Shown here: piece after piece, positions 7,848 to 27,586 of the stretch
Numbering within the stretch: the first letter of the stretch is position 1
Layout: each line of letters starts with the position of its first letter
Source: Vulcanimicrobiota bacterium
Lineage (GTDB): Bacteria > Vulcanimicrobiota > Vulcanimicrobiia > Vulcanimicrobiales > Vulcanimicrobiaceae
DNA length: 64,000 bases
Direction: 5' to 3'
Assembly (NCBI GenBank): GCA_963795855.1
Contig: CAWCIZ010000003.1
Coordinates: 256,001 to 320,000, forward strand
The notes under the pieces: model-generated
What the model saw: the letters and a program-made list of their open reading frames with translations, nothing else
What the model was told of the DNA's origin: nothing
Database searches by the model: none
Made by a program: the position numbers and the translations under genes

Positions 7848-8192
7848 TCATACGGGCTTGCCCTTCTTACGGGGGATGCGGCGCAATGCTTCAACCGCGC
7901 CCGCTACGTCCGGGTCGGCGAGGGACAGACGCAAGAGCAGCGAGCGCAGCTCGCTGAACGCAAAATAATGCGGGTTCAAGGTGATTCGCCGTTCACGACC
8001 GCTGGTTCGAATGGCGAGAACGCCGTCAGTCTCGAGCGCATCGACGATTCGCTGCACGGACAACAACGGAGCCTTCAGAACGCGCGCGACTTCTCGAGCG
8101 TACGTCTCTTCCAGAAGGGCAATGCACACCAGCACCTCTGTCCGGCGTCGGCTGCCTAGGACGCGGGACTTTGCGCCGATGGGGCTTCTCAT
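7848..8192 (-). CDS. small winged-helix (ArsR/MarR-like) DNA-binding protein
   Basis: YAREVARVLKAPLLSVQRIVDALETDGVL...GRER; GAGGA RBS. Confidence 0.75.
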   Translation of the reverse strand: MRSPIGAKSRVLGSRRRTEVLVCIALLEETYAREVARVLKAPLLSVQRIVDALETDGVLAIRTSGRERRITLNPHYFAFSELRSLLLRLSLADPDVAGAVEALRRIPRKKGKPV

Positions 8193-16382: not shown

Positions 16383-17417
16383 TCAAGCCTCCACGCGGCG
16401 CCACTGAGCAACCGCGAGCGCGACATACGCAACGCTGAGAGCGCACAGCACGCCGGCACAGCCGGCAATCGGCAGCAACGCGTTCGAGCGTCCTCCGCTG
16501 CTGTGCGAAAGGTAGGCGAGGGGATCGATATAAGAGAGCGCTCTGAAAATCGCATAGAACCATGCCGCGACGCCGTTGACCGCTGCCAAAGAGTGCAGCG
16601 CGTCCGCGATTCCAGGGACCAGCAGCGCGACAAGCCACCCCAATCCGACGACGATTCCCGGACCGCGCTTGAGCGAGGCGCTCGCCGCAGTGATGCAGGC
16701 GTACCACGCAATCGGCAGGGCCAGAGACAGGACGATCGTCCAACCCAAATCCGATCCGTAAGAAAAGCGCGGAACGAAGAACAGGAGAGTCGCAATCAGC
16801 ATTACGGCGAACGTGAGCAACTGCGAGAAGAGAATCGCAACGGCATCCACGACCGCGGCCGCGACGGCATAGTGCTCGCGCGAAACCGGTTTCGTCCACG
16901 CGACCTCCAAATGTCCGTCGTTATCTTTCGAAAGAGCGCCTCCGAGCAGCGATGCGACGATCAACCCCATGAGTATCGTGATGAAAAAGCAGATTCCCAG
17001 ATCGAACGCCGGGACCGAGGGATTGTAGTGAATGATCGTGCGGTCGAGGGGTCCGCGGGTGGTCTCATGGATCGAAACGCTGCCGAACGAAAAATCTTCA
17101 TGGCTTCCACTCGCGCTTTTGGGTTCGGTCACATCCATGTCGACGCGGCCGCTGGGCCGCTGGAAAATCTCCGCGTGCGTACGGCGCGGCGGATCGTTCA
17201 CGACAATATGCGTCGATCCGTCCGCGAGCGTCGTGCGCGTCACGTGCGCCGTAGGCGAGTGCTGAAGTTCGACGGGCCAGTTTTGGATCGACCCGTGATG
17301 ATGCGTCGCGGCGACGATCCGAACGATTATCGCGCACAACAGAAAGATGCCGAGCAGAATCGCAGCGATACGGACGGCGCGCTTTGCCCGCGCGTATTCG
17401 GCGAAGTAATACATCAT
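16383..17417 (-). CDS. ABC-2-type exporter permease with extracytoplasmic insert
   Basis: Multiple TM helices; G.L...WTKPVSR motif; follows the ABC ATPase. Confidence 0.82.
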   Translation of the reverse strand: MMYYFAEYARAKRAVRIAAILLGIFLLCAIIVRIVAATHHHGSIQNWPVELQHSPTAHVTRTTLADGSTHIVVNDPPRRTHAEIFQRPSGRVDMDVTEPKSASGSHEDFSFGSVSIHETTRGPLDRTIIHYNPSVPAFDLGICFFITILMGLIVASLLGGALSKDNDGHLEVAWTKPVSREHYAVAAAVVDAVAILFSQLLTFAVMLIATLLFFVPRFSYGSDLGWTIVLSLALPIAWYACITAASASLKRGPGIVVGLGWLVALLVPGIADALHSLAAVNGVAAWFYAIFRALSYIDPLAYLSHSSGGRSNALLPIAGCAGVLCALSVAYVALAVAQWRRVEA

Positions 17418-18325
17418 TTCGAAGGAACCCCGCTCTCCACGATGTCGGCCGTCTGGCCGGCATCAACCGCATTCAGGAAAATATCTTCCAAATTTAAATC
17501 CACGATGCGCACGCTTTGAGCGCCCATCGCGCTGAGCCGGCGCGCGAGATCGTCGCTGCCGCCGGTGACGGTGAGCCGGAAGATGCGCCCCGTCTTTTCC
17601 ACGCGCGTTACGCGCGCGTCGTTGGCCACGCCGTTGAGGGCTGCAGCATCCGATTCGAAGATCGCTTCGACGATTTTGGAATCGGCCTTCAGATCGTCGA
17701 CGGCGCCGGAGAGCGCGATGCTTCCGCTCTTCAGCACGGCGATGTGATCCGCCGCGCGCTCGACTTGACCAATCTGATGCGATGAAAGCACGATCGTCGC
17801 GCCCTGTGCCGACGCGTCGATCATGAGTTTCAAAACCGAACGCTGATTGATGGGATCCAGACCGCTCGTCGGTTCGTCGAGCACCATGATCTCCGGCTCG
17901 AGGGCGAAGGCCATCACGACCGCTAACGCGGTGCGCATCCCCTTCGACATGTCGCGCACGCGTTTGCGCGCGTCCAGCGAAAAGAGCTGCATCAATTCGT
18001 CAGCCCGTTTTGCGCTGTATCGTTTGAATGCGCGTTTCTGCATCTCGAGATGCTCCGCGGCGCTCATCCAATCGTACAACGCACTGCGTTCCGGCACGTA
18101 AGCCAGTTGTTCGAACATCGGCGGCGTAAGCGGTTTGCCGTCGAAGCGCACGTGGCCGGAGCTCGCGGCGGCAAGCCCGAGCATGCATTTGAACGTACTG
18201 GTTTTACCTGCGCCGTTGGGGCCGAGCAGGCCGAACACCGATCCGGTCGGGATTTCGATGCTCACATCGTCGACGGCGGTGAAAGTTCCGTACCGCTTGG
18301 TCAGACGCTCGATGGAAATGCTCAT
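17414..18325 (-). CDS. ABC transporter ATP-binding protein (YtrB-like)
   Basis: GPNGAGKT, MSKGM, LDEPTSGLD, SSH. Confidence 0.96.
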   Translation of the reverse strand: MSISIERLTKRYGTFTAVDDVSIEIPTGSVFGLLGPNGAGKTSTFKCMLGLAAASSGHVRFDGKPLTPPMFEQLAYVPERSALYDWMSAAEHLEMQKRAFKRYSAKRADELMQLFSLDARKRVRDMSKGMRTALAVVMAFALEPEIMVLDEPTSGLDPINQRSVLKLMIDASAQGATIVLSSHQIGQVERAADHIAVLKSGSIALSGAVDDLKADSKIVEAIFESDAAALNGVANDARVTRVEKTGRIFRLTVTGGSDDLARRLSAMGAQSVRIVDLNLEDIFLNAVDAGQTADIVESGVPSK

Positions 18326-18720
18326 TGTTCCTCCGGAAACCACCGCGCGAGCGCGGCCTCGAAGAGTACGCGGATGTTCGCGGCGTTCAAGCCGATCGAC
18401 TTCGCCTCGCGAACCGCTTGCAGCAACGAATCGGAGGCCACGTCGGAAGCCGCTGCGCGCGAATTCTCGACCGAACCATTGCCTCGCACGAACGAGCCCC
18501 GTCCGGGGGCCGTCTCGATGATGTCGTCGCGTTCCAGTTCGCGATAGGCGCGCGCGACCGTGTTCGGATTCACCGTGAGATCGAGCGCGAGCTGCTTGAC
18601 GGTGGGGAGCTGCTCGCCGGGGGCGAGGACTCCAAGGGCCACGGAGCGCTTGACTTGCTCGATGATCTGCAGGTAGATCGGAACGCCGCTGCGCGGGTCG
18701 ACCGTGAGAACGGCTGGCAT
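18322..18720 (-). CDS. GntR (YtrA subfamily) regulator
   Basis: PIYLQI...LPTVKQLA..LTVNPNTVARAY..LE..G.GSFV; short C-terminus. Confidence 0.95.
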   Translation of the reverse strand: MPAVLTVDPRSGVPIYLQIIEQVKRSVALGVLAPGEQLPTVKQLALDLTVNPNTVARAYRELERDDIIETAPGRGSFVRGNGSVENSRAAASDVASDSLLQAVREAKSIGLNAANIRVLFEAALARWFPEEQ

Positions 18721-18729
18721 GGCGCCGAG

Positions 18730-18846
18730 TTAAAGCTTCGGGCCCCAGCCGAGGAAAAGACCGCCGGACTGCTGCTCCAGCGGGAAGGCGGGACGGCGCG
18801 TTTCGCCTTCGATATTACGGACTTGACGGTTCAGACGGATGGTCAT
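18730..18846 (-). CDS. small peptide, GWGPK family copy 1 (38 aa)
   Basis: TAGGAG RBS; MTIRLNRQVRNIEGETRRPAFPLEQQSGGLFLGWGPKL*. Confidence 0.75.
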   Translation of the reverse strand: MTIRLNRQVRNIEGETRRPAFPLEQQSGGLFLGWGPKL

Positions 18847-18887
18847 CGCTTTGCTCCTAAATTCCGCACTAGTGTCAATCTGCTGTC

Positions 18888-18905
18888 GTACTAGTACACT
18901 AGTAC
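18888..18905. promoter_or_regulatory. YtrA-type operator palindrome
   Basis: Perfect GTACTAGT-AC-ACTAGTAC upstream of the peptide-gntR-ABC operon; extra CACTAGTG at 18867-18874. Confidence 0.75.
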
Positions 18906-18936
18906 AATAGCACATTATCGCAAGCCGTCAAGCCCC

Positions 18937-20265
18937 TTGGTCAAAAAAAAATCCCGGCCGTGGTATAAACAGCGCATGCCCGGCCTCTTTCGAGGGTCCT
19001 GCGACCTTACGTTTCGCGGCGAGCGGCCGGCGTTTTACGCAACGCTGCTTTTCGCACTCCCCGCGGCCGCCGCGATCGGCTTCGTCATCCATGAAGAGAT
19101 CGGCATCTCGCAGGTCGCGCTTTTTCTGGTGATCGCGATGGTTTACGTCACGCTTGGGCGCGGCCGGCTCGTCGGAACGAGTGTGCGCATTCACGAAACG
19201 CAGTATCCGGAGTTGTTCGCGGTGGTCAAGCGCTGCGCAGCCGCGCTCGACTTGCCGATGCCCCTGGTTTTCGTGCGGGAAGACTACAACGTTCCCGTGC
19301 TTGCGGTGGGATTGGGCGAACCGTATTCGCTCGTCATTTCGAGCAATTGGATCGAGCACTTCAAGGAAGACGAACTGACATTCATGGTGGGGCGGGAGAT
19401 CGGACACATCGCTTCGGGTCACACACGCCTGACGTCGCTGCTCAGCGTGAACGGAAACGAAAATGCGATCGTGTCGCTCGTTTTCGGGGCGTGGCTTCGC
19501 AAAGCGGAACTCACCTGCGATCGCGTGGGCCTGCTCTGCTGCGGCAGCGTCGACGCCGCGACGCGCGGGATCGCGGTCGCCTCTTTTCATCATTTCGCTC
19601 GCAAAATCGACCATCGAGCGTTTGCGCGCCAGCATCGCGACGCCGGCATGGACGGCATTTTCCGGCTCGGCGAATGGCTCGGCGCGATGCCGTACGCGAC
19701 GACGCGCATCGACGCAATGCAGGCGTTCTCCGTTACGGATCTGTACCGGATGCACGAGCCGCGCTTCGCACGGCCGGACGCACCCGCACCGGTTCATGTC
19801 GTGGAACGCGGCGAAACGACCGTGAAGAGCCGCGACTGCGCCGGGTGGTGGCGGCGTTTCTGGGCCTTCGTCCTCGATACGATCGTCGTGGGCGCCATTG
19901 CCAATATCGTCACGCTGCATGCGGAGTCGCTCAAGAATCAGACGACGGTGCTCTTCGGCAACGTTCACGTCGCGGTGAGCGGCACGTGGTGGCTGAGCAC
20001 GCTGGGATTCCTCGTCTACTGCACGGTTCTCGTTGGCCTCGTGGGTCAGACGCCCGGAATGCTCGTGGCTGGACTGCGCGTCGTACGCACCGACTTCGGG
20101 CGACCCGGCTTCGCACAATCGTTGTGGCGCTACGCGTTACTGATTTTGCTGTGTTGGTACATCGTGCCGCTCAGCCCGTTTTCACGCGTGTATGCCAGCG
20201 ACAAATGGTCGCGTACGCGCCTGATCAAAACCGAGCGCGTCCTCGCGCGAACGGCTACCGCGTAA
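18937..20265 (+). CDS. M48 peptidase-like domain fused to RDD domain
   Basis: QYPEL, EL.F..GREIGH, RKAELTCDR, then AGWWRRFWAFVLD...GQTPG..VAGLRVV (RDD); start may be 18976. Confidence 0.85.
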   Translation: MVKKKSRPWYKQRMPGLFRGSCDLTFRGERPAFYATLLFALPAAAAIGFVIHEEIGISQVALFLVIAMVYVTLGRGRLVGTSVRIHETQYPELFAVVKRCAAALDLPMPLVFVREDYNVPVLAVGLGEPYSLVISSNWIEHFKEDELTFMVGREIGHIASGHTRLTSLLSVNGNENAIVSLVFGAWLRKAELTCDRVGLLCCGSVDAATRGIAVASFHHFARKIDHRAFARQHRDAGMDGIFRLGEWLGAMPYATTRIDAMQAFSVTDLYRMHEPRFARPDAPAPVHVVERGETTVKSRDCAGWWRRFWAFVLDTIVVGAIANIVTLHAESLKNQTTVLFGNVHVAVSGTWWLSTLGFLVYCTVLVGLVGQTPGMLVAGLRVVRTDFGRPGFAQSLWRYALLILLCWYIVPLSPFSRVYASDKWSRTRLIKTERVLARTATA

Positions 20266-20743
20266 TTTGCGTCTGCAACGCGTTGCTCATACGGTTTAAC
20301 GCGTTGACCATGCCGATGAGCGACAGAATTTCGACGATCTCTCCGTCGTCGTAGTGCGTGCGCAGTTCGCTCCACAACGTTTCCGGCAGCGCACGCGCCT
20401 CGCGGGTCAGCGAAACTGCAGTCGATAGGGCTGCTTTTTCACGCGCGCCGAACAAATCGCTGCGCGCAAAATCCCACAGCGCGTTCAGCGAGTCGACGCT
20501 CACGCCTGCAGCGCGCGCTTCCCGCCGGTACGCAACGAGTGCCGGTTCGCAGAAATTCACGGCGGACACCATTGCCGCGCAGAGCGCTTTGGTCGCCGCA
20601 GAAACGGTGCCGCTTCGAATGACGACGCGCAGATAATCGGCCGCTGCGGCGGCGATCTCGGGGCGCGCGGCGAGCGTCGCGAAGAGATTCGCGTCGGGAA
20701 CTTCGCCCGTGCCCGGCGCGGCGAGCGCGGGCAGCCGAGGCAT
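20255..20743 (-). CDS. carboxymuconolactone decarboxylase/AhpD-family protein
   Basis: NLFATLA.RPE, VSAVNFC, REKAAL, HYDDGEIVE, NRMSNAL. Confidence 0.85.
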   Translation of the reverse strand: MPRLPALAAPGTGEVPDANLFATLAARPEIAAAAADYLRVVIRSGTVSAATKALCAAMVSAVNFCEPALVAYRREARAAGVSVDSLNALWDFARSDLFGAREKAALSTAVSLTREARALPETLWSELRTHYDDGEIVEILSLIGMVNALNRMSNALQTQITR

Positions 20744-22167
20744 TACGCCGGACCTTGCGTAAACGGCCTGAATCGCGCGTCGTCGCGCACCGGATCCATA
20801 CGCGGGTCGATCGCGAGCATGCCTCCGAACTGCGAATGCTGCGCGCGCCGCAGCATCTGGAGCGCTTCGCTGCGCCGCCCCATGGCGACCAGCGCCGTTA
20901 TGACGTCCTCGGGGTCGACGGCGTCGTTGGCCATGCCCGCTTGCGCGACGCGCAGCTCCGCCGCCGCGTCGGGGTAATCGTGCGATGCCGCGTAAACGTG
21001 CGCGAGAAGGGCGGCGGCTTCGAGCCGGCAGGTTGCGCAGCTCGCGCCGTAACGCTGATACGCGGCGATCGCCGAGCGATAATCTCCGAGCGCCTCGTAT
21101 GCAAGCCCCATCGCTTGATACGCATCGAAGCGCTCCGGCGAAAGGTCCAGCGCCTGCTGCGCGTACCGCACCGCCTGCGTATACCGTCGGGACATATAAG
21201 CGGCTTCGGAAAGCCAGTCGGTCGCGGCGACCGATTCGGGATCCAGCACCGCGGCCTTGTGCAATTCGTCGAACGCCTCCGACCCGCGTCCCTCGCGAAG
21301 CAGCGCCATGCCGTACCACTGATGCGCCGGAGCGTACGCAGGGTCGAGCGCAATAGCGCGCCGGTATTCGATCTGTCCGGCGACGGCGTGGTGCTGCTTG
21401 ATTTCGACTAGGCCGAGCGCGGCATGCGCTTCTGCCGAATCGGAATCGAGCGCCAACGCTCGGTCCGCGTAGGTTCTCGCCCTGGCGAAAGCCCGGGTCT
21501 TCGTGATTGGGCCGAAGCCGTAGTCGCCCTCGATCGCGTACGCCACCGCTAGCCCGGCATAGCCGAGAGGATTGTGGGGATCGCTGGCCGTGACTTGATC
21601 GAAGTAGCGCAGACTCTTGCTAATCCCGTCGGCAGTCCGCTGGTTCCAATAGAACTTGCCCATGGAGTAGAGTCGCGCACCGTCCGGCGAGAGTGCAGCG
21701 GCGCCACGTAAAGGCTGCCGCGCATGCGCGAGCCCGCCGACCGCCACGCCGAGTAGCAGTACGATCGCCGCAGCAGCGGCTGCAAGTGACGACCAAGCAC
21801 GGCGCCGGGGCCGCTCGGTGACCGCGGTCACGTCCGGAGCCTGGGCAGGTATATCCGCCTCTTGGCTGACGGGTGCGGTGAAGCGGTAACCGCGCCGCGG
21901 AACCGTTTCGATGGCGTCGCGCTCCCAACGGAGCCGAAGGGCCTTCCGGATGACGTAAATGTTTTGAGCGAGGTTGGCTTCTTCGACGAATCCTTCGGGC
22001 CAGACGCGTGCGAGCAATTCGCTCTTGCTCAGTATGTCGCCCGGATGCTCGACCAGTGCGAGCAGCGTCTCAACCACCTTAGGACCCAAGGCGATGGGTG
22101 CCTCACCAAATGAAAGCATCAGTGGTTCTCTGTCAAGCCGAAACGGCCCGAACCGATACCTCGTCAT
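20743..22167 (-). CDS. CadC/ToxR-like winged-helix + TM + TPR regulator
   Basis: MTRYRFGPFRLD...VWPEGFVEEANLAQNI..IRKAL..IETVPRRGYRF, one TM helix, TPRs; GAGGAG RBS. Confidence 0.9.
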   Translation of the reverse strand: MTRYRFGPFRLDREPLMLSFGEAPIALGPKVVETLLALVEHPGDILSKSELLARVWPEGFVEEANLAQNIYVIRKALRLRWERDAIETVPRRGYRFTAPVSQEADIPAQAPDVTAVTERPRRRAWSSLAAAAAAIVLLLGVAVGGLAHARQPLRGAAALSPDGARLYSMGKFYWNQRTADGISKSLRYFDQVTASDPHNPLGYAGLAVAYAIEGDYGFGPITKTRAFARARTYADRALALDSDSAEAHAALGLVEIKQHHAVAGQIEYRRAIALDPAYAPAHQWYGMALLREGRGSEAFDELHKAAVLDPESVAATDWLSEAAYMSRRYTQAVRYAQQALDLSPERFDAYQAMGLAYEALGDYRSAIAAYQRYGASCATCRLEAAALLAHVYAASHDYPDAAAELRVAQAGMANDAVDPEDVITALVAMGRRSEALQMLRRAQHSQFGGMLAIDPRMDPVRDDARFRPFTQGPA

Positions 22168-22444
22168 CAGCGCTCCTCTTTCCAACTCTCGCCGATGGGA
22201 TTTCTCATGTCCGCAGGCTCGCGCCTTGCTGCGGGCGGATGCGGCCCCGGCGGTGCACCCCGTAACGGATGAACGCCGCGCAGCGTGACGCAGTTCGTCA
22301 CGAAACGCATTCAAACCGTCACACTATTTTACGCGAAACGATTTGCGAAATGCGCATGAAACAAAAGTTGTATGCGTGCAGTAGAAGCGGGTGTACATTA
22401 CGGATGGAACGCGGGTGCGTTCCTCGCTAAACAAAGGATTTATT

Positions 22445-22606
22445 GTGAAAATCGCTGCGAAACAGCAAGCGAAAAACCAGGAAAAGCCGCAAGCGCGTCC
22501 CACGATCTCCCTCGAAAGAGTGTTGACGACCGGACCCGACACGTCTTCATTTGGAGGCTGGGGTCCAAAAGTGAGCGCCGGTAACTTTTTGAAAAACTGG
22601 AATTAA
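22445..22606 (+). CDS. small peptide, GWGPK family copy 3 (53 aa as assembled)
   Basis: AAAGGA RBS then GTG; MKIAAKQQAKNQEKPQARPTISLERVLTTGPDTSSFGGWGPKVSAGNFLKNWN*. Confidence 0.6.
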   Translation: MKIAAKQQAKNQEKPQARPTISLERVLTTGPDTSSFGGWGPKVSAGNFLKNWN

Positions 22607-22646
22607 TCGCGATTTAAAGTTTCACTCATATCGCTATGATATGAAT

Positions 22647-22759
22647 GAAAAACGAGCGGCGTTGTCCTCCACCAACGAAGCTCGTTCGACTCCTACCTCG
22701 TAGAGTGCAGCAAGACGGGTTGGCGATGTCTCCACCATCGCCAACCCAAATTTTTTTTT
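22647..22759 (+). ncRNA. candidate small RNA (or structured 3' UTR) with three hairpins and CUCC loops
   Basis: TATGAT -10-like box 22635-22640; stems at 22651-22686, 22689-22706 and 22717-22747; T-tract. Confidence 0.5.
22717..22759 (+). terminator. rho-independent terminator
   Basis: GGGTTGGCGATG-TCTCCAC-CATCGCCAACCC followed by AAA and a T-run. Confidence 0.8.
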
Positions 22760-23733
22760 ACGATACGTACGGTTCGTTCGGCGCCACCGGCGCGAGTATG
22801 CGATCCATCTGCGCGAACGTCGCCGCATCGATGTCCAAATCGCCGGCAGCAGCATTGTCCTTCACGTGTTCCGGCTTCGTCGCACCGGCGATCACGCTCG
22901 TGACCGCGGGCTGACGCAAGCACCACGCCAACGCCAGTTGCGACATGCTGCAGTTTGCGCGTTCTGCGAGCGGCCGCAAACGCTGCACGGCATCCAGCAC
23001 CGCCTGATTGAAATAGTCCTCCATCATGTCCGCGTTGGGTCCCGCCGCGCGCGTTCCGGATTGCGGATGCGACGCATCGGTATATTTGCCGCTCAGAATC
23101 CCCATCGCAAGCGGAGACCACACGACGTTTCCCAATCCGTAGCGCGCGCACGCGGGAAGGACGCGATCCTCGATGCGGCGCCATAACGCGCTGTATTGCG
23201 GCTGATTGCTGATCGGTACGGCCCATCCGCGCGCGCGGCACACGTTCACCGCGGCAACGATTTGATCAGCGTTCCACTCCGAAACGCCCCAATACAAAAT
23301 CTTTCCGGCGCGTACGAGGTCGTTCATCATCTCGCACGTTTCTTCGAGCGGCGTCGCGAGATCGTAGCGGTGGCATTGGTAGAGATCTACGTAGTCCACC
23401 TGAAGGCGGCGTAGCGAGTGATGAATCTGATCGCGAATGTGTTTGCGCGAAAGCCCGCGCTCGTTCGGTCCGTCACCCATCGGAAAATACACCTTCGTTG
23501 CGAGAACCAGCCGATCGCGCGGCAACTCCTTTACGATCGGCCCGAGCACTTCTTCAGCGGCACCGCGCGCATAGACGTTCGCCGTATCGATGAAATTGAT
23601 GCCGCGCTGCCACGCCTCCAGCACACACGTTCGCGCGATGTCGGCGCCGACGTTTCCGCCGTATGTCAGCCACGACCCCAAACCGACTACTGAGAGTCTG
23701 CAAACCGGAATGTCCTAACGATCGATATCGCAT
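22758..23733 (-). CDS. aldo/keto reductase (Kv-beta-like); frameshift ~23695
   Basis: MRYRSLGHSGLQ / GLGSWLTYG, DTANVY, DLYQCHRYD, GVSEW, WSPLA. Confidence 0.93.
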
Positions 23734-23741
23734 TTCGAGCG

Positions 23742-24560
23742 CTACGGCACCAAGATGCGAAGCGCCTTCGGCACCACGTCAAACTCAGCCGGCGTCAATC
23801 CGGCCGGTTCGCCATCCGCGCTGACGTGATGCGGGTGATGCGTCGAGATCGAAAAACGCGCGGCTCTCCGCGTGCGCAGGCCTCGTCCGGAGGACGGATC
23901 GCGCGCGACGATTTTTCGCACCACGGCGAATGCGTCGAACCAATTTCGCGGCTCGACACTGTACAGATCGAGCCATCCGTCGTCGATCGCAGCATCTTCG
24001 CGTTCGATTATGCCGCCGAACCGCGCGTTGTTGGCAACGGTTATCTGCACCGTCCGGCACGATTCGCGTTTCCCGTCGAATGCGATTTCGGCGAAGAACG
24101 GCCGAATGTCGCGAAGCGTCTGCAGCGTGGTCGAAACAACCCCTAACGCGCCGAAGCGCTGCTTGAGCTCGGGCGTTTGCCGTCTTGCAATGCGCGCCGA
24201 AACGCCGATGCTCGCTTCGTTGACGAAATAGCGGCCGTTCACCCGGCCGACGTCAATCGCGCGCGTGCGGCCCCCCGCGATCACCGAACAAGCCGCCGAG
24301 ACGTCCAGCGGAACGCCGAGCGTCTTTGCCAGATCGTTGAAGGTGCCCAGCGGCACGATGCCGAGCGGTGCGCCGCGTTCCAACGCGAGCGGAATAGCGC
24401 CGATGACGGTTCCGTCACCTCCCGCTGCGATGACCGCGTTGCACGGCTGCGCCGCATCGTTCGAACACTCGATGCCCGCACGCTCGAGCATGCTGCACGC
24501 GGCGGCGCCTTCGCGCGCGCCCAAACGCGAGCGCTCGTTCACGATGAGAAGAGCTTTCAA
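23742..24560 (-). CDS. YegS/DAGK-family lipid kinase
   Basis: AGGDGT, PLGTFNDLA, IDVG, DDGWLD, DGE. Confidence 0.93.
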   Translation of the reverse strand: MKALLIVNERSRLGAREGAAACSMLERAGIECSNDAAQPCNAVIAAGGDGTVIGAIPLALERGAPLGIVPLGTFNDLAKTLGVPLDVSAACSVIAGGRTRAIDVGRVNGRYFVNEASIGVSARIARRQTPELKQRFGALGVVSTTLQTLRDIRPFFAEIAFDGKRESCRTVQITVANNARFGGIIEREDAAIDDGWLDLYSVEPRNWFDAFAVVRKIVARDPSSGRGLRTRRAARFSISTHHPHHVSADGEPAGLTPAEFDVVPKALRILVP

Positions 24561-24613
24561 CGAGCTCCCTTTACCCGCGGGACGCGGCGTTTTCGCCGCA
24601 GAACGACGGCGCG

Positions 24614-25936
24614 GTGCTGCTGCAGCGCCGCCTGGGAGTCGTCGACTTCACGCTCATCACGATCGGGTCGGTCATCGGTTCCGGCATATTCCGCAACCCG
24701 GCCCTCGTTGCGCAGCGCGCGCACGCGCCTTTCCTCATCACCACGTGCTGGATCGCCGGCGGCCTGCTCGCACTGATCGGCGCATTCGTGTTTGCAGAAC
24801 TCGCGGGTCGCAGGCCCCTCGACGGCGGCCTGTATGCCTACCTTCGGGAGGCGTACCATCCGGGCGTCGGTTTTATTTTCGGATGGATGATCTTTTGGAT
24901 TCTGTATACCGGCGGAACGGCAGCGTCAGCCGTGCTCTTTGCCGGATATCTCGCGCCCGCGCTCGGCGTCACTGCAGACCCACGGCTCGTTGCCTGCCTT
25001 ACCCTTGCGTGCGTTACCGCAATCAATGCGCTCGGCGTGCGGCAAGGCGCGGGATGGCAGCATTTTCTCGTCGTTCTCAAGGTTTGCGCGATCGGATCGC
25101 TGATCGTCGCAGGGTTCGCCGCGCATCCGATAGCCGCGCACGCGTCGACGCTGCCCGAACTAGGTAAACCTTGGCACGTCGCCGCGGCTTTAGGCGTTGC
25201 GATGCTGCCGGCCTTGTTTTCATATAACGGATTCCAATCGGCGACGTACGTTAGCGCAGAAGTGCGCGAACCGGCGAATACGATTCCGCGCGGCATGCTG
25301 CTCGGCGTGAGCGTCGTCATCGCGGTGTACATCCTCGTGAGCACCGGATGTTTGCGGGTGTTGGGACCGGCCGCACTCTCGGCGTCGCCGACGCCGGCCG
25401 CCGACGTTATGCGCGCGGCGTTCGGAACGATCGGCGAGCGCGCGATCGCGATCGCGATCGCGCTTTCAACGCTCGGATTCATGAGCACCGCGATTTTGGT
25501 TGCGCCTCGCGTCTACTTCCAACTCGCAGAGGATGGGATGCTCTTCCGGCAGGTCGCTTGGGTCCACCCGCGCACGCGCGTGCCGATCGTCGCGATCGTG
25601 ATGCATGGTGCAATGTCCGCAGTGCTGGCGGCAAGCGGAACGTTCGAGCAAATCGTCAATTGGGTAACCCTCCCGAGCTGGTGCTTCATCGCGCTGGCCG
25701 CGCTGGCAATTTTCATATTCCGGCGGCGCGATGCCAATCTGCCGCCGCCGCGCGTCCGCGTCCCCGGCCATCCTTGGACGACGCTGCTCCTGATCGCCGC
25801 GGTAGCAGGCGTCGTCATCGCGGAGATCGCCATCTATCCGCGCGATTCGCTCTACTCGATCCTCGTGCTCGCCGCCGGCGGGCTGGTCTACCTGACGTTT
25901 TTCAGTTTTCGCCGCTATCGGGAATGGCGCGCATGA
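24614..25936 (+). CDS. APC-family amino acid permease
   Basis: IGSGIF, FAEL, GG.YAYL, 12 TM pattern. Confidence 0.93.
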   Translation: MLLQRRLGVVDFTLITIGSVIGSGIFRNPALVAQRAHAPFLITTCWIAGGLLALIGAFVFAELAGRRPLDGGLYAYLREAYHPGVGFIFGWMIFWILYTGGTAASAVLFAGYLAPALGVTADPRLVACLTLACVTAINALGVRQGAGWQHFLVVLKVCAIGSLIVAGFAAHPIAAHASTLPELGKPWHVAAALGVAMLPALFSYNGFQSATYVSAEVREPANTIPRGMLLGVSVVIAVYILVSTGCLRVLGPAALSASPTPAADVMRAAFGTIGERAIAIAIALSTLGFMSTAILVAPRVYFQLAEDGMLFRQVAWVHPRTRVPIVAIVMHGAMSAVLAASGTFEQIVNWVTLPSWCFIALAALAIFIFRRRDANLPPPRVRVPGHPWTTLLLIAAVAGVVIAEIAIYPRDSLYSILVLAAGGLVYLTFFSFRRYREWRA

Positions 25937-26273
25937 TGTCGTGGGCGAGCGCGTTCGCACTCTGGTCCGGGGGAAGTTGAACGGCGATCCGCGGAAAGCG
26001 TTCGCCGTGCGTTTCGATGACCAGACACTCGCCCGCGCCGCTCACGTCGCAGAAGATGATGCCGTACGGATTCGCGAAAACGCCCGCGCTCTTGAGCATG
26101 CCGAAGTTCAGGCCTTCGAGTTTGTACTGCAACTGCAGGTCTTCGAAGTCGCTCACGTATGCGTTGACGACGTGCGCCAACGGGATGTGGAACGAACCGT
26201 GAAATGCCAGGAGCGAGTCCAGTAAGGACAGTTTTATGGTGAGAGTATCGTCGACGATCGCTACGTCCGCCAA
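25902..26273 (-). CDS. hypothetical protein (PH-like fold suspected)
   Basis: GGAG RBS; LLAFHGSFHIPLAHV pattern. Confidence 0.7.
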   Translation of the reverse strand: MADVAIVDDTLTIKLSLLDSLLAFHGSFHIPLAHVVNAYVSDFEDLQLQYKLEGLNFGMLKSAGVFANPYGIIFCDVSGAGECLVIETHGERFPRIAVQLPPDQSANALAHDIMRAIPDSGEN

Positions 26274-26388
26274 GTTTCACGCTCCGTTTCAAGAGTTTCC
26301 GGCGTTTTCAACGGCTCCATTTTTTCGGCCTCTCGTGTTGTAAATGCGGCCGTGCATGGGAACATTTGATGACCAAGGGAGAAATGCT

Positions 26389-26697
26389 ATGCCTGGTACT
26401 GCAAAGAGCAAATCGCGGACCTCTCGCAAGAAGTCCGCAAGCAAGAAAGTAAAGCCGGCTTCCGGTCTGAAAGCGAAGGCGAAGAAGGCCGCGGCGCCGT
26501 TGAAACGTGCGGCAAAGAATCCGAAACGAACGGTGAAGAAGGCCGCGGAAAACGTGCACGATAAAGCTTCGAGCGCGCGCAAGGTCGGCGAATCCGTCGT
26601 ATCGGCGGGCGAGCTCATCAAACAAACCGCCGACTTTGTGGATGCGATGGCTACGCGTGCGGGAAAGCGATCGACGGGGGCACGCACCAAGAAATAA
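26389..26697 (+). CDS. basic Lys/Ala-rich histone-H1-like protein
   Basis: MPGTAKSKSRTSRKKSASKKVKPA...AKKAAAP; GGGAG RBS. Confidence 0.75.
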   Translation: MPGTAKSKSRTSRKKSASKKVKPASGLKAKAKKAAAPLKRAAKNPKRTVKKAAENVHDKASSARKVGESVVSAGELIKQTADFVDAMATRAGKRSTGARTKK

Positions 26698-26725
26698 GGG
26701 CCGGCATTCCTGGGAGTGCCGGCCC
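26698..26725. terminator. hairpin between convergent genes
   Basis: GGGCCGGCATTCC-TG-GGAGTGCCGGCCC. Confidence 0.6.
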
Positions 26726-26734
26726 CGAGTCGAT

Positions 26735-27103
26735 TTAGAATTCCACGTCGTACAGATAGGAACCGGCGACCCGTTCGCAGTTGGAAGTTTCCGGCGTAAA
26801 GCGTGTCAGACGTGCGGATTGAAGCGCCGCGTCGTCGAGCAGCGCGTTGCCGCTGCCGGCGTAGAGTCTTGCGCCGATCAGGTTTCCGGACGCGTCCAGA
26901 TCGATCTTGACCTGCGAAACGCCGCTTGCACCAAGTTCGGCTGCCATTGTCGGCATCTGCCAGAACGGCGTTCCATCCACGCCGGCAGCAACGTCGCATC
27001 CCGGACGCGAGCTGACGACGGCTACGTGGTGCGAGAATGGAACCATCGTTATAGCGGGCACTGCGGCAGCGGCCGCGACCGCTGCAACTATCAAACTAAG
27101 CAT
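26735..27103 (-). CDS. secreted TonB C-terminal-domain protein
   Basis: GAGGAG RBS; signal peptide; G...VKIDLDASG...GSGNALLDDAAL..AR..RFTP. Confidence 0.82.
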   Translation of the reverse strand: MLSLIVAAVAAAAAVPAITMVPFSHHVAVVSSRPGCDVAAGVDGTPFWQMPTMAAELGASGVSQVKIDLDASGNLIGARLYAGSGNALLDDAALQSARLTRFTPETSNCERVAGSYLYDVEF

Positions 27104-27219
27104 TGCGATCTCCTCATCGTCGCCGCGCGCGGTGCGTGGCGACAGATGGAGCGCTCGATCTCGGCAAGATGTAAGAGGGGGTACGGGAGGGGTACCCCCT
27201 TTTACTCGCGACCCGGCAT

Positions 27220-27357
27220 CTACAGTTTCGGGCCCCAACCGGGGAAAAGTCCGGTATTGACCGGCCGAATGTGGTGCACCAGGTGCGAACGTTCTTGGTC
27301 GTCGCGCTGCTCGGTCTCGTCAGCGGCTTGCAGTTTGCGATACACCTTGGGGGACAT
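27220..27357 (-). CDS. small peptide, GWGPK family copy 2 (45 aa; not in the ORF track)
   Basis: AAGGAG RBS 6 nt before ATG; MSPKVYRKLQAADETEQRDDQERSHLVHHIRPVNTGLFPGWGPKL*. Confidence 0.75.
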   Translation of the reverse strand: MSPKVYRKLQAADETEQRDDQERSHLVHHIRPVNTGLFPGWGPKL

Positions 27358-27586
27358 CTTGCGCTCCTTCAACGGCTTCAAATCGAGCCGATGAATCAAT
27401 GCTAGTCAGATGCCGTCGCGCGGCCGTCCGAAGATCGTCCTGGCGCCGTTTTTTTTATGGCGGTCAAGCCCACTCGCTAGGTGAGTCTCCCTTACGGGTT
27501 AGAGTCACCGGCGCCGAGGCAGAGCGTCCAGGCTGGCTTCTCCGGGTTTATCGGAATCGGAGCAGTGCGGCCCACATCGTGGTGCC

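Follow-up and report, generated by a model that had tools for sequence, protein, structure and literature searches.

The FxGWG peptides, an undescribed multi-copy micro-protein family of the class Vulcanimicrobiia with three copies in one 64-kb window

The nearest positional analogue of the peptides described here is YtrG of B. subtilis, encoded by the first cistron (about 40-45 aa) of the ytrGABCDEF operon, ahead of the YtrA repressor and ABC genes; YtrG acts as a product and is not a toxin (PMC13729164). CcaF1, a DUF1127 protein, and the CcsR cuckoo RNAs combine a small protein with 3' untranslated region (UTR) hairpins that carry anti-Shine-Dalgarno loops, under an alternative-sigma-type promoter (PMC8034643). 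The arrest peptides that monitor Sec and YidC carry an N-terminal signal or transmembrane segment, 30 aa or more upstream of the motif (PMC10987492), and apidaecin needs its penultimate Arg and terminal Leu (PMC11347161, PMC11549390). The locus compared with them is a stretch of 64,000 nucleotides from a Vulcanimicrobiota bacterium (GCA_963795855.1, contig CAWCIZ010000003.1, positions 256,001 to 320,000 of the forward strand), called the window, in which a preliminary description had singled out three small open reading frames (ORFs) sharing a C-terminal F-x-G-W-G-P-K-[LV] motif. These ORFs belong to a class-wide, undescribed family of micro-proteins under purifying selection, the FxGWG peptides.

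All three ORFs lie where they had been placed and contain the codons quoted for the motif: copy 1 (18730..18846, minus strand) encodes 38 aa and ends LFLGWGPKL*, copy 2 (22445..22606, plus strand) encodes 53 aa, and copy 3 (27220..27357, minus strand) encodes 45 aa and ends LFPGWGPKL*. Each has its own Shine-Dalgarno (SD) sequence (AGGAG, AAGGAG and AAAGGA among them). The motif is indeed C-terminal in copies 1 and 3, but not in copy 2, where a 10-residue tail (SAGNFLKNWN*, ending in WN) follows FGGWGPKV. The loci had also been taken as unrelated. This is true of copy 3, whose closeness is seen only here (in G005, 1.2 Mb separate it from copy 1), but a spacing of 4-10 kb between copies 1 and 2 recurs in further genera (L093, L115, L118, L122, L133, L134). 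Copies 4 and 5 were located elsewhere in the source genome (G000; 3.06 Mb, 86% complete) by a six-frame scan, at G000:C1:541029(-) and C1:579114(+). The pattern F.GWG[PV][KR][LIVMF] yields 5 matches in this genome against 0.036 expected (six frames, 6.1 million positions), and none in either the reversed or the complemented genome.

The dispersed family that had been proposed from three copies is far larger. A degenerate DNA pattern for F-x-G-W-G-[PV]-[KR]-[ILVF] finds 1-6 matches each in 148 of the 151 genomes labelled Eremiobacterota or Vulcanimicrobiia (7 matches in the reversed control); in the remaining three, G044 (98% complete), G070 (96%) and G077 (72%), a profile search gave no convincing copy. 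The pattern under-counts: each of the four ytrA orthologs located by way of ytrA itself has a copy ahead, and among these copies are ends that the pattern misses (GPKA, GVSI, GVTL). Across 69 genomes from the rest of the phylum the matches are at background level (11, with 16 in the control), and the one inspected closely contains no ORF; viral contigs gave no match to a narrowed codon pattern. With one genome per species there are at least 80 loci. Among the matches listed, 76 are family members and 4 are chance; 66 of the members are labelled Eremiobacterota or Vulcanimicrobiota, 6 come from unnamed bacteria and 4 carry other labels, and these last, which have the gene layout of the family, are possibly mis-binned or mis-labelled. 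At the protein level, a search returned 98 representatives at E <=0.001 and 216 proteins of near length, all named 'hypothetical protein' (Ca. Eremiobacteraceae, Cybelea and Baltobacteraceae records among others). All 218 database proteins found by a profile weighting the F, G, W and G residues hold FxGWG, and 195 end at the motif. Up to five of the genomes counted are marked unpublished (G014, G036, G061, G075, G146), and no single claim depends on them; alignment A1 has rows from three genomes so marked.

That the motif belongs to no described family also stands. The three window peptides match no Pfam or NCBIfam family and seven further members no NCBIfam family, while 73 members gave only two single chance matches in Pfam. 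The best PDB match has an E value of 1.4, and the ESM Atlas returned nothing at 0.9 (best 0.80, no family). Literature searches aimed at the family, with supplements and most subscription papers outside their scope, did not find a description of it, and GWG and Eremiobacter are absent from the main text of PMC10987492. A possible likeness to the FGGWG.R stretch of bacterial PH-like domains or the WhiB GVWGG turn was dropped for want of Pfam support.

Sequence character was assessed on a context sample of 100 regions from 41 genomes, hand-picked from the motif matches. Together with G000 it holds 114 motif matches, of which two were dropped as chance before counting (L079, L104) and 112 kept; one match in L115 has no start call. 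The peptides have 30-60 residues, a median charge of +2 and no hydrophobic segment (maximum 15-residue hydropathy 1.43, n=110), and are rich in Pro (10.5%), Arg (9.4%) and Gly. Their SD sequences are strong (median -7.3 kcal/mol, 99/112 at or below -4.4). F, G, W and G are invariant in all 73 aligned copies at a mean column identity of 19%, and position 6 of the motif, which the search pattern restricted, is R or K in 105/112. The commonest ends are PKL, PRI, VRI and PRL. The motif is the end of the peptide in 73 of the 112 copies, and in the other 39 it is extended by 1-11 residues or a whole protein. Across nine gap-free orthologs of copy 1, pN/pS declines from 0.61 (codons 2-17) through 0.17 (codons 18-29) to 0.11 (codons 30-38), and of the 21 columns at each of codon positions 1, 2 and 3 in codons 18-38, respectively 8, 0 and 15 vary. 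Because pN/pS falls from the N- to the C-terminus and every synonymous codon is in use across the 112 motif copies, the constraint lies on the peptide, as had been supposed, and not on the DNA or RNA. An RNA-level reading of the motif was rejected on the same codon usage and the lack of conserved pairing.

The 110 short copies of the sample lie in several gene arrangements. A co-oriented gene follows within 45 nt in 59 and further off in 22, and a convergent gene in 29; the neighbour genes were called by a home-made codon model and some are wrong (one copy-2 ortholog was counted as co-oriented). One convergent group spans several genera, with gaps of -14 to 29 nt in 5/6 loci. Genes for a YtrA-type GntR regulator and ABC proteins lie directly downstream of 35 of the 112 copies. 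A divergent extracytoplasmic function (ECF) sigma gene accompanies 13, with DUF4097 or DUF6249 genes downstream, and a divergent CGNR/ABATE regulator 12; winged helix-turn-helix (wHTH)-TPR regulators, PadR, a BlaI-like repressor and BTAD-STAND activators also recur. Copies thus appear to stand first in transcripts governed by seven or more unrelated types of regulator (YtrA, PadR, BlaI, CGNR, ECF sigma, SARP/STAND and wHTH-TPR). By eye, upstream signatures differ per neighbour group (TTGACA with a GTACTAG palindrome; GGTTA/TAAC; ACTAA-TTAGT; TGAAAC-N16-CGTA; GGACG repeats), and the boxes may correspond to the respective regulators; within G000 itself, copy 1 is of the YtrA type, copy 2 ECF-like, copy 3 of the GGACG type and copy 4 BlaI-like. 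The stop codon falls at the motif in 52/59 coupled but only 9/29 convergent copies; with one vote per neighbour family the figures are 7/11 and 8/18 (p 0.45). No secA, secDF or yidC gene lies downstream among the scanned neighbour families (80 of about 105 representatives). Beside several copies (L085:2697-2864, L077, L002 near 7860-7990) there is a recurring ORF of about 55 aa (..GFEVYDRT.DGYLVR..) with no Pfam match. An ECF sigma gene follows 5 nt behind a coupled copy in L270 and L064; one of the two loci is on a short contig that carries an Acidobacteriota label, reflecting either mis-binning or transfer.

Copy 1 is the first cistron of a ytrA-ABC operon on the minus strand, and its stop codon lies 9 nt before the ytrA start. 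The operon comprises a YtrA/PmtR-like GntR repressor gene with a weak SD of its own (18322..18720, assigned by family match; PmtR is among its best NCBIfam matches, below cut-off), an ABC ATPase (17414-18325) and an ABC-2-type permease (16383-17417). Upstream, a sigma-70-type promoter (TTGACG-16-TATTGT, 18904..18931, minus strand), whose layout the orthologs share, adjoins at its -10 element a palindrome found by eye (GTACTAG..CTAGTAC, 18888..18905). This palindrome is kept before YtrA-linked copies and is a putative YtrA operator. In 28/35 YtrA-linked copies ytrA starts 2-14 nt past the peptide stop, and its SD is weak (median -3.5 kcal/mol vs -9.3 for the ABC gene). Pairing of the motif codons with the ytrA start, assessed in the YtrA group only, is not conserved (15/34 above shuffles, p 0.29). 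A close YtrA ortholog occurs in 144/151 class genomes. Five of the seven genomes without one still hold the motif (G011, one contig, 97% complete; G024, G159, G025 and G026), while the well-assembled, motif-free genomes G044 and G070 are also without close YtrA. A predicted complex of the YtrA dimer with copy 1 scored 0.00; controls were not folded, and it counts neither way. In G011 (L086) the YtrA-type peptide is kept, yet no close ytrA was found in this one-contig genome. Divergent from copy 1 lies an M48 peptidase-RDD fusion gene (18976-20265, plus strand), an arrangement repeated in 6 sampled loci.

Copy 2 lies between a divergent wHTH-TPR regulator gene and a convergent aldo-keto reductase gene. 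Its promoter region (TGAAACAAAA ... GTGTA[CGA]A, 22357..22396, plus strand) is conserved in orthologs, and its -35 element is presumably ECF-like, judged against the ECF consensus. Behind the ORF, within a conserved 3'-UTR stretch at 22617-22747, a structured RNA (22617..22715, plus strand) consists of two covarying hairpins with a CCUCCAC loop (22666-22672) and an invariant UCGUAGAGUGCA linker; a terminator hairpin predicted by folding (22717..22760, plus strand), with a second CUCCACC loop and a U-run, ends the copy-2 transcript. Folding of the two hairpins together with the terminator gives a z of -7.2. The two-part pattern of this RNA is found once each in 24/301 genomes and never in the control, and an FxGWG ORF ends 45-89 nt before the loop in 23 of the 24, the single case without such an ORF ahead being L192 (G333:C5:257183). 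Pairing reaches 86-96% in helices 1-4 over the 24 sequences, 20/24 pairs showing double changes, above shuffled and slid controls, and the anti-Shine-Dalgarno CCUCCAC loop is predicted to be unpaired in all 24 (0.65-1.0). The terminator hairpin aligns poorly (33-54% paired), and for this reason covariation is not claimed for it. A covariance model matches 15/150 genomes, once in G000, and all six matches outside its training set have an FxGWG ORF ahead. The RNA has no Rfam match, and a target scan with the linker returned only two non-self 11-mers in G000. The 3' RNA belongs to only one FxGWG subfamily; tails in the copy-2 ortholog group measure 1 or 10-11 residues. The invariant linker (..CGTAGAGTG.., 22697-22709) resembles the copy-2 promoter box GTGTA[GCA]AGT at 22391-22396, which might reflect a DNA-level role or promoter mimicry. 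Taken together, copy 2 is likely a dual-function transcript, encoding a peptide and carrying a 3'-UTR small RNA (sRNA) candidate.

Copy 3 is preceded by a GGACG direct repeat (27425..27440, minus strand, by eye) that is also present before copy-3 orthologs and fused TonB_C genes, and which is a putative SARP/BTAD-type activator site. Behind it come a GC-rich hairpin (27177..27199, minus strand), replaced in orthologs by a hairpin of different sequence at the same place, and, 116 nt behind copy 3, a gene for a secreted TonB_C-domain protein (26735..27103, minus strand). The AlphaFold monomer of copy 3 has a pLDDT of 62 and no structural elements. A search for longer homologs of the peptides gave three matches, all ordinary copies with wrong start calls, and fusions were therefore sought in the genomes. 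Motif-TonB_C fusions occur in G165, G163, G287, G147, G140 and G020 (four genus labels) and in P0076: the intact motif stands directly before the h-region (mean hydropathy 2.2-2.9), followed by an AxA site and TonB_C, with no stop between. The fused genes and copy 3 have the GGACG promoter type in common. In a tree of the TonB_C domain 0/11 branches are starred, and the separate TonB_C gene of the window may be a split form of the fused lineage. In four copy-3 orthologs from other genomes the TonB_C gene is replaced by a 102-106-aa ORF and a YcaO gene; what lies downstream is thus exchangeable, whereas the peptide is kept. This ORF has no Pfam match and often ends DGF..C (L183:1719-3129, L185, L184, L120:3671-5187); the loci are divergent from a BTAD-STAND regulator and are candidate RiPP (ribosomally synthesized and post-translationally modified peptide) clusters.

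The favoured reading, given slightly under an even chance, takes the FxGWG peptides to be soluble micro-proteins that many stress regulons produce in common, their motif docking in trans on a single partner present throughout the class. According to this model, they would be unstructured and would be made by numerous stress and envelope regulons of Vulcanimicrobiia, presumably being expressed and induced under stress, each regulator type (including the BlaI-like and CGNR/ABATE ones) having a copy that heads a transcript under its own control. The variable N-terminal half would serve as a spacer, and the last 16 or so residues (R-x-x-hydrophobic-x-x-P ... F-x-G-W-G-[PV]-[RK]-[ILVF]) would form a short linear motif that binds the partner on the cytoplasmic side, where unrelated stress signals would converge. 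When fused, the motif would remain on the cytoplasmic side, attached to the signal peptide, until cleavage released it. The motif persists where no gene follows, whatever the length of the tail (0-11 residues), and where it lies inside a signal peptide, and this points to a trans-acting product that works by way of a short linear motif; its retention with tails and in fusions argues against a ligand that requires a free carboxyl end. Docking, one of three ideas in the preliminary description, is thus compatible with all contexts, but the common partner that it supposes was not found. Several further observations weigh against it: a co-oriented gene lies behind 81/110 copies; the stop codon directly follows the motif in all 35 YtrA-linked copies sampled and in all four located by way of ytrA, which is what a termination-linked leader would show; and arrest peptides, too, become more conserved towards the C-terminus. 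YtrA is not the sole partner, because five of the seven genomes without a close ortholog keep the motif.

The main rival explanation, possible though somewhat unlikely, is a peptide acting on the ribosome: the nascent or just-released chain would stall the ribosome at or near the stop, as an arrest leader or by release-factor trapping of the type II proline-rich kind, and would either tune coupled translation of the next gene or titrate ribosomes and release factor. At ytrA such a stall would cover the start codon and lower the repressor. The leader position of most copies, the closeness of the weakly initiated ytrA behind the stop, the invariably fixed stop of the YtrA-linked copies and the prevalence of motif-end stops in coupled copies all speak for it, and the P/V-R/K-aliphatic ends and the Pro/Arg richness recall what apidaecin needs (PMC11347161, PMC11549390). 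However, the association of stop and context vanishes per neighbour family, the motif codons show no conserved pairing with the ytrA start, and the 29 convergent copies have no cis target except the 3' RNA of one group. Moreover, 39/112 copies have no free motif end, the N-terminal localization signal typical of monitoring substrates (by the criteria in PMC10987492) is lacking, and the fusions place the motif before a signal peptide, not after it. The arrest-leader idea of the preliminary description suits the leader-type copies but fails on the convergent copies, the variable tail and, in the YtrA group, the absence of a conserved hairpin over the next start.

It is quite improbable that the peptides are ligands or cargo of YtrA-ABC, binding and inducing the repressor or being exported by the transporter, with other regulons feeding in, as for the phenol-soluble modulins (PSMs) with PmtR/Pmt (PMC5080381). 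The most conserved copy does head the ytrA-ABC operon, the GntR resembles PmtR, close YtrA is nearly universal, and G044 and G070 lost both YtrA and motif. This joint loss is partly trivial, because loss of the operon removes one copy, and the motif persists without close YtrA in five genomes. PSMs are amphipathic helices, whereas the FxGWG peptides are not hydrophobic. Least probable, and very unlikely, is a RiPP or exported-signal precursor with the FxGWG end as core, another of the original ideas. The invariant aromatic and Gly-rich end, the YcaO genes behind four copy-3 orthologs and the TPR regulators beside some copies would fit it. Yet SPASM radical-SAM proteins exceed the cut-off in only 18/41 genomes and in none of the G000 proteins, no YcaO was found in G000 at its 86% completeness, and the YcaO loci carry their own 102-106-aa ORF, a likelier substrate. 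In addition, the part that would be the leader is the variable one, tails vary, and no signal peptide or hydrophobic segment is present. No maturase common to the genomes emerged from the SPASM and YcaO searches. Returning to docking in trans, a wider form can be envisaged, rather unlikely as it stands, in which a portable peptide module behind unrelated stress regulators, also used on signal peptides and sRNA transcripts, acts throughout on one central machine. In its boldest version this machine would be the terminating ribosome, and the peptides would be endogenous apidaecin-like release-factor traps serving as a general stress brake.

A few features of the window and genome stand apart from the family. 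Near copy 3 lie a histone-like 101-aa ORF rich in Lys and Ala without a family match (26392-26697, plus strand) and a 123-aa ORF without a Pfam or NCBIfam match (25902-26273, minus strand), which may resemble a PH-type domain. Elsewhere in G000 (L216, G000:C2:119707-122904), with no FxGWG nearby, a stand-alone PqqD/RRE gene lies between ABC-like genes and an unannotated 274-aa ORF.

Annotation has thus overlooked a near-universal, multi-copy family of a widespread soil class or entered its members as 'hypothetical'. The motif serves well as a marker of the class, and the RNA behind copy 2 adds a new sRNA candidate. The modular use of the motif is odd; its recurrence with seven or more regulator types points to a site where bacterial stress signals may be integrated. 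With the ribosome as target, the peptides would parallel, in bacteria, the translation-inhibiting peptides of insects; with a protein partner as target, they would name a new hub.

The family shares single features with several described systems. SecM, ApdA/ApdP, CliM, TnaC and PepNL are likewise encoded by short ORFs with C-terminal conservation, often upstream of a gene (in part from PMC10987492), but FxGWG peptides have no localization signal, no sec/yidC target among the neighbour families scanned and, in the YtrA group, no conserved sequestering hairpin, and many copies lack a downstream gene. With type II proline-rich peptides they share a free N-terminus and Pro/Arg richness, and the copies that stop at the motif (73/112) may share the fixed Pro/Val-Arg/Lys-aliphatic C-terminus (PMC11347161, PMC11549390); apidaecins, as there described, are insect peptides with PRPPHPRL and no FxGWG, whereas a third of the FxGWG copies are extended. 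The PSM-PmtR-PmtABCD system of S. aureus also joins small peptides to a YtrA-type GntR and an ABC exporter (PMC5080381), but here the peptides are not hydrophobic, YtrA is missing in five motif-bearing genomes and any binding is conjectural. AfsS/AfsR of Streptomyces, a small protein gene under a large SARP/STAND activator (PMC6988585), recalls the copy-3 orthologs and the fusions; no sequence likeness was found, and the FxGWG peptide is used by many regulator types. Copy 2 resembles CcaF1-CcsR in its small protein, its 3' UTR with anti-Shine-Dalgarno loops and its alternative-sigma-type promoter (PMC8034643). By analogy its 3' RNA may work like that system without being a member of it: FxGWG peptides have no DUF1127 match, the loop is CCUCCAC and not CCUCCUCCC as in CcsR, and the RNA is one unit with an invariant linker and no Rfam match. 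Closest in position remains YtrG, since copy 1 and 35/112 copies are also the first cistron of a ytrA-ABC operon; YtrG, however, has a single transmembrane segment (PMC13729164), whereas the FxGWG peptides are hydrophilic, multi-copy, defined by their motif and found mostly outside ytr operons.

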